A DNA stretch of 64,000 nucleotides. Source: Candidatus Poribacteria bacterium. Lineage in GTDB: Bacteria > Poribacteria > WGA-4E > GCA-2687025. Location of the stretch: contig OY762492.1 of the NCBI GenBank assembly GCA_963665845.2, positions 416,001 to 480,000 of the forward strand. The letters run 5' to 3'. A model generated the notes under the pieces. It had not been told where the DNA came from. It searched no databases and saw only the letters and a list, made by a program, of their open reading frames with translations. Both the position numbers and the translations under genes were made by a program. Shown in pieces: positions 1 through 3,000 of the stretch (position 1 is the stretch's first letter; each line of letters opens with the position of its first letter).

Positions 1-3000
1 GCAGCAGCTTCTCCTCCGGACCCAGCTCGCTTTCCCCCTTCGGCGCGATCTTTCCGACAAGAATTTCCCACGGCTCCACATAGGAGCCAACCTGCACAAC
101 CCCCTCTTCGTCCAGGTTGCGCAGCGCCTCCTCGCTCTTGTTCGGGATGTCGCGCGTGATCTCCTCATTTCCAAGCTTCGTGTCGCGCGCCTCAATATCG
201 CACTCTTTGATGTGTATGGAGGTCAGAATGTCGTCCCGCACCAGCCGCTCGCTGATGAGTATCGCATCCTCAAAATTGTAACCGTCCCACGGCATGAACG
301 CCACCAGCACATTCGCGCCGACGGCGATCTCTCCTTTGTCGGTTGAGCTGCCGTCCGCAATCACATCGCCCGCCGCGACCTGTTGACCCTTCAGCACAAT
401 CGGGCGCTGGTCAACCAGCGTGTCGCTGTTGGAGCGTTTGTATTTTTTGAGTTGGTAGACGTCGTACCCCATGTCGCTGAACGAGTATTCGCCCTCCTCC
501 AGCTTGAGGCTGTCCTGGCGCGCCTCGCCGCTTCTGACGATGATCTCGTCCGCGGTGACGCTTTCGACAACGCCGCCGTTTTTGGCGACGACGACCGCGC
601 CTGAATCGAGCGCCGCCTTCTGTTCAACGCCGGTGCCGACGACGGGCGAGTCCGGCTTCAACAGCGGCACCGCCTGACCCTGGTAATTGGCGCCCATCAA
701 CGCGCGCACCGCGTCGTCATGCTCCAAAAATGGAATGAGCGACGCCGAGATGCCGACCAGCTGCTTCGGCGAGACGTCAATATAGTCGACGTTTCCCGTG
801 TCGTTGATCGGATAGTCGCCTTGGTGGCGGGTGATGATTTCTCCGCCCTGAAGAGCGCCGTCTTCCGCCCGGAGCGTGTTGCCTGGGGCGATGACGCATA
901 CATCCTCCCGGTCCGCCGTGAGATATTCGATGGCGCCATCGACCGCCTTGCCCTGTTCAACCTTCTGGTAGGGCGTTTCGAGAAAGCCGTATTCGTTCAC
1001 CTTTGTGTAGACGCTGAGGTACAGTATCAGCCCGACGCCGGGACCCTCCGGCGTTTGAATAGGGCAGATGCGCCCGTAGTGGGTGTGGTGAACGTCGCGG
1101 GCGTCGTAGGTGGCGCGCTCTCGGCTCAAGCCGCCCGGGCCGAGCGCCGTGATGCGCCGGCGGTGGACAAGCTCGTCCAGCGGGTTGTTTTGAGACATGA
1201 ACTGCGACAGCTGGCTGCTTCCAAAAAAGTCTTTCAGCGCGCTCATGAGCGGTTTTGGAATGATGAAGTCGTTCGGCGTTTTCTGTTCGATCTCCTGCGC
1301 CAGCCCCGTCATTCGGTCGCGTATGTTGCGCGCGATGCGGTACAGCCCCTGCCGAACCACATTTTCGATCAGTTCGCCGACAGCGCGCACCCGCCGATTT
1401 GCAAGATGGTCAACATCGTCCAGCCCGCGCTTGCCGTACATCACGTCCAGCATTTGACGCAGCGCCGCCCGAATATCCCGCTGGTCGAGAGTCCGCTTGG
1501 TCGGGTCAATCCCTTCGCCAGGTCTATGCAGCTTCTTGTTGATCTGGTACCGTCCGACGCGCGACAGGTCGTACCGCCCCTCAAGAAAATAGAGGCTCTC
1601 AATGCGCTGCTTCGCGGCGTCGTATGCGACCCTGTCGTCGCCCGGCTGAATGCAGTAGTAGGTCGAGTACACCGCTTCTTCGACATCCTGCGTATCGTCC
1701 TTCGCCAGCGAGTTTAGAATCGGTTCCGCCCACTTTGCCGCGTCAAATCGAACGACGGAGCGTTTTGCGGCGGCAAAAAGCTCTTCCGTTAAAGCGTCGC
1801 CGGCTTTCGCGATGATGTCGCCCGTCTCCGCGTCCACCGCGTCCTCGGCGAGCGGCTCCTCCAGACACAGATGCAAGTTCCCCGCGTTCGCTTCCATCGT
1901 TTCAGGCGCGACGACAACATGCGTAACGCCTTCGTCGGTCAGGAGGCGCAGCAGCTCTCCGTCCAGCGTCTGCCCGGCGGAAAGCAGTTTCTCATCCGCT
2001 TCGTTGCGTATGTTGACGGCAGAAATGCGCCCGATGAGACGTTTCAACGGATTGCCGGCAGGGATCTCATCAACTCCGTATTCCTCTTCATCAACGGGAA
2101 CAATCGCGCCGCTGTCCGCGTCCGCATCGTCTTTAACCAAAACGGAAATGCGGCGCGTTTCAAAGCCGTCCGCGTCGTCAACAATCTCTTCGGTCAAAGG
2201 ATCGCCCTTGAACGCAAACACCTCGCCCGTCTCCGTGTCGAAGGCGTCCTCGGCGAGCGGGAAGCCGAGGTAGTCCAGCGCGTTCTCCGCGTTCAGCGCA
2301 ACAACCTCTCCGGACGGAGGCGCATACAGCAGCGGCGCGTCGTACACGACTAGAGAGGCGTCCACCTCCTGCGCCTCGGCGACGATGCTTTCGTCTAAAA
2401 CCTCCCCCTTGAACGCAAACACTTCGCCCGTTTCCGTATCGACGGCGTCCTCGGCGAGGGGTTTGCCGATCCAGTCAAGAGCGTCGTCGGCGTCCAGCTC
2501 TTTTCGGGCGTACAGGTCGTAGCTTTCCGGCTTGAAAAAGCCGCTGACAATCTCTTCGTCGGAACCTTTTGCGCCGTCTTCAAACGCAAACAGCGCGCGA
2601 AGAAAGGTGGCGGCGGGCTGGCGTTTATGCTTGTCCGCGCGCGCGTGAATCACATTGTTCGCGTCTGATTCAAACTCAAGCCAGCCGCCGCGTATCGGGA
2701 TCAGCTGGGCGGTGTAGGTTTTGCGCCCGCTCGTTTGCGTCTCCTCTTTGAAGATGACGCCGGGGGAGCGGTGCAGCTGGCTGACGACGACCCGCTCAAC
2801 GCCGTTCACAATGAAGGTGCCGCGCTCGGTCATGAGCGGTATCTCGCCCATATACACCTCCGATTCGCGCGCCTCCTTGATGCGCTTCTCGTCGCTGTCG
2901 GGGTCGTCCTCCTTCAGGATGAACCGCACCTTCACTTTGAGCGGGATCGCGTAGGTCATCCCGCGGTCGGAGCATTCGTCAATGTCGTATTTCGGTTTGC

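Follow-up and report, generated by a model that had tools for sequence, protein, structure and literature searches.

A rifamycin-binding pocket that differs from that of Escherichia coli at many sites raises three questions: whether the differences are real, when they were acquired, and whether the RNA polymerase that carries them still responds to the drug. We examined such a pocket in the β subunit (RpoB) encoded at the edge of a 64,000-nucleotide stretch of Candidatus Poribacteria DNA (contig OY762492.1, positions 416,001 to 480,000; here called the window). Our analysis indicates that the pocket has probably been rebuilt in two inherited steps, with an active polymerase that binds rifamycins poorly as the likely outcome.

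The open reading frame at window 2-3274 (minus strand) aligned with E. coli MG1655 RpoB. The 5' part of the gene lies at 2..3220 (minus strand), with a probable ATG start at 3220, and rpoB extends past the window edge to C1:414703 of the genome, where rpoC follows. A Shine-Dalgarno-like AGGAGG (3225..3230, minus strand) stands ahead of this ATG, and a sigma-70-like promoter match (TTGACA-18-TAGAAT, 11/12, a consensus match only) is present at 3278..3307 (minus strand). Together these signals suggest an RpoB of 1505 aa, in agreement with the 1505-aa database form (P0001), and rpoBC likely has its own promoter. The protein gave a full-length match to TIGR02013 above the cut-off, carries six Rpb2 Pfam domains and retains its catalytic and RNA-binding residues (nucleotide- and RNA-binding R529, R678, Q688, K1065, K1073, R1106 and H1237; E. 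coli numbering here and below). With rpoC adjoining, we take the gene to be the housekeeping rpoB of Ca. Poribacteria, the group to which the closest hits among genome records and named proteins also belong (titled records may overlap the genome set and were not counted twice). A single rpoB locus was found by tblastn and a TIGR02013 profile search of the genome (89.96% complete, three contigs), with no sensitive second rpoB within that assembly. Upstream of rpoB (window 3278-4652, minus strand) there is an ankyrin-repeat gene (426 aa) with the near-consensus promoter, and not rplJ-rplL. The β lobe region (window ~1700-2560, minus strand) holds a long acidic insert with three similar segments of the PLAEDA.D.ETG type, and both RpoB and RpoC (1779 aa) exceed the lengths seen in the sister genus. 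Rfam gave no match within the 64-kb window.

A first-pass annotation had listed nine pocket substitutions, and alignment to E. coli MG1655 RpoB recovered every one of them on the minus strand: D516S (TCT, 1193-1195), S522D (1175-1177), S531T (ACG, 1148-1150; a conservative change), E562Q (1055-1057), N568G (1037-1039), S574Y (TAC, 1019-1021), N677V (707-709), M685Y (683-685) and R687G (GGT, 677-679). The four codons that it had located were placed correctly. The alignment added I524L, T525V (1166..1168), K527R (1160..1162, own genus only), TYDA for GFEV at 544-547 (G544T/F545Y/E546D/V547A, 1100..1111), I569V and N573L, which forms a Leu-Tyr pair with Y574 at 1019..1024. Rifamycin cluster I (505-537) corresponds to 1130..1228 (minus strand). 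The wording that changes occur throughout the pocket was however an overstatement, as Q510, L511, S512, Q513, F514, H526, R529, L533, G534, R540, P564 and I572 are unchanged. Sites 565, 566, 681 and 684, known for resistance to initiation-site inhibitors, are also unchanged. The altered resistance sites had been described as normally highly conserved, which failed for 522, an Ala in 73 of the 150 best divergent RpoB representatives. A structure prediction around the pocket had a mean pLDDT of 61.7 and a pTM of 0.36, with pLDDT <50 at model residues 105-164 and 246-283 (most of clusters I-III), values so low that the model carries no conclusion.

Contigs of three public runs reproduced the codons. 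Single contigs of runs X1 and X4 cover 600-1300 with 0 differences and three overlapping contigs of run X2 tile 400-1600 with 0 differences; these three runs belong to one study and may include the source sample. Relatives recovered in two other studies (X5 and X6) differ at codon 531, and in X6 also at codon 516, by synonymous changes only. Likewise, codons 516, 525, 531, 685 and 687 vary synonymously among the five genomes of the clade defined below, all of which have the derived residues. Assembly error was rejected on the strength of the identical contigs and of relatives with the same residues in different codons.

We then read the pocket across the phylum. Among 176 Poribacteria genomes 166 matched the query, and the pocket was read in 47 that were picked to cover families. 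One genome (G011) was left out: two of its rpoB pieces end before the pocket, and the match that does include the pocket lies in a divergent frame of 2224 aa. All 47 genomes, from both classes of the phylum, lack Asp at 516 (41 Gln, 1 Ala and 5 Ser, the Ser in the present clade) and Asn at 568, and all have D522 and T544. We refer to these changes as layer 1. Residue 568 was Ser in the other Poribacteria orthologues examined, and 685 varies among M, Q, H and Y across the phylum. The first step would accordingly have been D516->Q with S522->D in the phylum ancestor, moving an acidic side chain by six residues, together with N568S and G544T. The Q516 and D522 pair was also present in 11 proteins outside the Poribacteria clade (P0063, P0064, P0071, P0074, P0075, P0084, P0100, P0108, P0110, P0111 and P0117), where by its position outside that clade it is convergent. 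Layer 1 showed no significant enrichment in the pocket (p=0.36 and 0.06) against a non-Poribacteria background that was picked by query similarity and contains Q516/D522 and Y574 lineages. Within the phylum, family f8 (e.g. L023-L031) has extra pocket changes of its own, S509N and L533I with M685H. Another genome (G044; C56 and C20, loci L113 and L114) has two rpoB copies that are nearest to different Poribacteria families (97% and 93%), possibly through bin contamination.

Other RNA-polymerase-like frames were also observed in the phylum. Open frames of ~1040-1110 aa in three genomes (L108:3070-6195 in G023, L109:3201-6440 in G012 and L110:3309-6584 in G028) combine β-type Rpb2_3 and Rpb2_6 with β'-type Rpb1_2 in one chain, and by domain content resemble a compact single-chain RNA polymerase besides the normal rpoBC. 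Weak matches in similar frames were seen in G017, G019, G020, G026, G030 and G040; no such frame was seen in the present genome. Separately, an α-β-β' fusion of at least 2125 aa is open at the end of its locus (L111:1625-7999, G014), a divergent β/β' chain of 1704 aa is encoded at L112:2119-7230 (G010), and the 2224-aa frame of G011 noted above (C244) is likewise a divergent RNA-polymerase-like frame.

A second layer of changes was confined to one clade of two genera (g1 and g5): S516, V525, T531, Q562, G568, L573, Y574, V677, Y685 and G687, with A547. It was carried by five of the 47 genomes, by database proteins P0002-P0007 and by two metagenome loci. With the pocket masked, the g1 and g5 clade was still monophyletic (support 1.0). 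In the sister group A516 was found, with Y685 in one protein, and S531, S574, N677 and R687 were retained. When GTDB species genomes were scanned for six exact peptide patterns, including one across Y685 and G687, four loci were confirmed, each 75-96% identical. The genomes that represent the remaining two genera of the family (G002 and G004; 64% and 61% complete) gave no rpoB match, and intermediates there were unread. On the stem of g1 and g5 the second step would have comprised 516->S, T525V, S531T, E562Q, 568->G, 573L, S574Y, N677V and R687G, with 685Y.

Layer-2 changes are concentrated in the pocket beyond chance, with β' almost untouched. The pocket was defined as 510-537 and 563-572 (PMC10550828), 146, 148, 508, 509 and 574 (PMC12337354), plus 687. 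Among columns that do not vary in 16 other Poribacteria, 5/35 in the pocket, 9/365 elsewhere in β and 1/402 in β' had changed in the clade (p=0.004 and 0.0003 for the pocket against other β and β' columns, respectively), and four of the nine other β changes (547, 562, 573 and 677) adjoin the pocket in sequence. In a rate-matched simulation, 7/44 pocket sites were clade-diagnostic against 0.5 expected (0/200,000 draws), although one of the seven (518) is a reversion to the E. coli residue. Restricted to the published 38-residue window, the test gave 5/38 against 0.44 expected (P=3.5e-5); these P values are overstated, since neighbouring sites are not independent. None of five control clades was enriched in the rate-matched test. 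With the broader non-Poribacteria background the layer-2 enrichment reached only p=0.03-0.04.

In a comparison set of the 150 best RpoB representatives (50% clustering; enriched for divergent lineages), G687 occurred 0 times, S516, G568 and V677 twice each, D522 5 times, Y574 6 times and T531 16 times, and Y or H occupied 574 in 13. At least 8 differences from E. coli in the 38-position window were found in 49/150 of these representatives, and this RpoB has 8; most cultured species are reported to have <5 (PMC10550828). What is unusual is thus the combination of residues and their concentration, not the difference count alone. An exact-pattern scan of metagenomes gave 28 G687 loci (L079-L106): 2 of the own clade, 3 without readable clusters I-II, and 23 others. 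These 23 loci, which form about 4-5 related groups, some of them fast-evolving, have Y, F or H at 574 in 21/23 and a changed 525 in 22/23. This pattern suggests that 525, 574 and 687 form a coupled triad.

The effect on drug response was judged from single substitutions reported in other species. By this analogy the RNA polymerase is probably insensitive to rifamycins by nature and would bind them weakly. The D516 contact would be lost, a bulky aromatic at 574 would intrude into the pocket, and the cation-pi clamp that R529 and R687 form on the ansa chain would lack its R687 side. In E. coli almost any substitution at 516 is reported to give high-level resistance (PMC10550828), and four M. tuberculosis isolates with D516S had MICs of 5-15 compared to <=0.5 µg/ml, a 10-30-fold increase (PMC3602005). 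S574Y has been selected by rifampicin in E. coli with a fitness of 0.98 (PMC2872623); alone it is described as low-level, fit at 10 µg/ml and not above, and as synergistic in pairs (PMC7073797). PMC12337354 names both 522D and 574Y among resistance mutations, so that reported resistance residues in the sense of that source are present here. The contribution of 531 is probably smaller: small residues there are reported to give only low resistance (PMC7073797), and Thr is not one of the six 531 resistance residues that PMC12337354 lists. M. smegmatis R604 aligns with G687 of this RpoB (E. coli R687), a position in resistance cluster III. In the kanglemycin study the rifamycin backbone is held between R445 and R604 in a cation-pi sandwich, and R604 also forms the salt bridge with the kanglemycin acid (PMC6175910). 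An extra contact of rifamycin B with R540 has been described (PMC13404664); R540 is retained, and therefore rifamycin B may still inhibit the enzyme in part. Beyond the rifamycins, 677 is named as important for pseudouridimycin, and 568 and 685 contact GE23077 (bioRxiv 10.1101/106906, PMC3994528); by the definition in PMC11084559 none of 562, 677 and 685 falls within a resistance cluster. No match to Arr was found in the genome, and matches to Rox and HelR were weak and far below the cut-off. In our literature search, with subscription journals mostly outside its coverage, none of the papers listed dealt with rifamycins and the RpoB of Poribacteria or reported an inhibition assay of such an enzyme, and a whole-word search for R687G gave only two papers, both on cell biology as judged by title.

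The pocket could alternatively still bind rifamycins, if the electrostatics survived the exchange of Q/S516 and D522 and the remaining changes were balanced by V525 and T531. Core contacts (Q513, F514, H526, R529, L533, R540 and I572) are indeed retained, many substitutions at 525 are reported to raise rifampicin sensitivity in E. coli (PMC10550828), and epistasis is documented, with panel residues silent in other backgrounds such as Francisella 518D (PMC12337354). We consider continued binding unlikely, as several independently reported resistance residues and the loss of R687 would all have to be cancelled. Intrinsic rifamycin resistance, as proposed in the first-pass annotation, is therefore retained as the likeliest phenotype, given that the sole rpoB found has 522D and 574Y, a replaced D516 and no R687. 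The accompanying idea of adaptation to a niche shared with rifamycin-producing actinomycetes fared less well: layer 1 extends across both classes and is therefore not an adaptation of this organism, and no evidence for a rifamycin producer as the driver of either layer was found. The phylum is reported to include free-living members (PMC8546597).

What drove the rebuilding is less certain, as sequence does not discriminate among selection by antibiotics, transcription tuning and a compensatory cascade. Natural products that bind the pocket are, at a probability just under even, our slightly preferred selective agent, ahead of tuning of transcription or compensation. Rifamycin-producing Salinispora has been reported from sponge (PMC2866492), which makes exposure to rifamycin producers possible. 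In a 'sponge metagenome' run (X5) a single contig covers the stretch with 54 differences in 1201 bases, as in a close relative; a 'marine metagenome' run (X7) gave one identical 224-base piece at a depth of 2.1, and an RNA run (X11) gave pieces of a relative that carry no information on expression. The sister genus presumably includes seawater genomes. A credible competitor, although short of an even chance, is fixation of the changes through their effect on initiation, speed of elongation, pausing or NAD-capping, with drug insensitivity as a by-product. The 5' end of the nascent RNA also passes through the pocket, which forms part of the initiation site, and layer 2 includes the non-cluster residues 562, 677 and 685 beside the i/i+1 site. 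Pocket substitutions are reported to alter polymerase speed and cold growth, with 524L a natural 'fast' variant. Changes at D516 are reported to reduce NAD+ initiation most strongly (PMC5737558). The presence of layer 1 in every lineage examined points the same way. Such tuning is harder to reconcile with a β' that hardly differs in the clade, its active-site loop and the greater part of its bridge helix and trigger loop included, with a sigma finger region that aligns normally, and with the recurrence of the same residues under laboratory selection for resistance and in a rifamycin producer. It is also possible, somewhat more doubtfully, that one early change, for instance S574Y or removal of the side chain at 516, was followed by repacking of its neighbours, so that the cluster records a single event. 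The triad at the 23 outside G687 loci, the recurrence of Y/H574 among the best representatives and the pairing of Q516 with D522 outside the phylum are all consistent with compensation. Y574 coexists with R687 in other lineages, however, and G687 is therefore not obligatory; the 23 loci reduce to the few related groups noted above, and compensation would fit either cause, and resistance too.

Two further explanations are much less probable. Generally rapid evolution of a symbiont polymerase, or an artefact of assembly, would be in keeping with the long branch of the genus (0.227) and with the frequency of altered pockets in divergent lineages. The changes nevertheless cluster in the pocket with β' spared, family f8, a long-branch control, changed evenly (4/39, 28/441 and 36/481), and the residues are reproduced by contigs and relatives; contig identity and both enrichment tests largely refute this explanation, which we regard as very improbable. 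Self-resistance of a producer, or a resistant second copy of the rpoB2 type, is more improbable still. The phylum-level residues do match those of Amycolatopsis mediterranei, but one rpoB locus was found in a genome that is about 90% complete, and the search of this incomplete genome for an ansamycin modular polyketide synthase yielded a single ketosynthase match (PF00109, in a 414-aa frame) and no modular enzyme. Returning to selection by natural products, layer 2 might represent a second round of an arms race. A rifamycin-insensitive ancestor would have been remodelled against resistance-breaking pocket binders (kanglemycin-type, using the R687 salt bridge), and possibly initiation-site inhibitors (568, 677 and 685), through a coupled 525/574/687 solution reached independently by several unrelated lineages. 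We offer this extension as a speculation that is rather unlikely as it stands.

Several known systems resemble this pocket in part. A. mediterranei S699 is reported to protect itself with Q432, D438 and N447 (PMC10439133, citing Floss and Yu 2005), whose spacing equals that of E. coli 516, 522 and 531. Like the reported RpoB of A. mediterranei S699 and A. rifamycinica (PMC12337354), the present protein has Asp522, most Poribacteria have Gln516, and the clade has also changed 531. Unlike them, it carries S516, D522 and T531 in place of the producer triad of Q516, D522 and N531, together with Y574, G568, V677, Y685 and G687. Multiple pocket changes per protein are likewise described for rpoB2 and rpoB(R) of Nocardia, Nonomuraea and Actinomadura (PMC12337354), but there the resistant copy accompanies a sensitive one. 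Classification as such a paralog was rejected, because tblastn and the TIGR02013 search found no second rpoB in the 89.96% complete genome. In the kanglemycin A-RNAP complex (PMC6175910), R604 provides an extra contact through which kanglemycins inhibit rifampicin-resistant enzymes; that contact is absent in this RpoB, while the sugar-contact positions (E. coli R143 and S508, by offset) are predicted from sequence to be kept.

The closest parallels are lineages with resistance-type residues in an ordinary rpoB. PMC12337354 reports 531N in Spirochaetia, 526N in Mollicutes, 574Y in 183 species, and at least one resistance residue in about 8% of 18,127 species. Intrinsic resistance-type rpoB alleles are thus common, and our basic claim is of that known kind. 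In those lineages, as here, the residues are inherited clade-wide; Spirochaetia and Mollicutes mostly have one, whereas the Poribacteria clade combines at least two named residues with D516S and R687G on an ancestral pocket that was already altered. The finding bears on marine chemical ecology, on rifampicin RNA-decay assays in Poribacteria and on rifampicin as a possible selective agent in their cultivation. It supplies enzymes for two open questions, namely whether pocket variants arise from antibiotic pressure or transcription tuning, and how R687 is lost. To the known alleles it would add an ordered natural series of two steps, from canonical to phylum-type to clade pocket, with the catalytic core intact.
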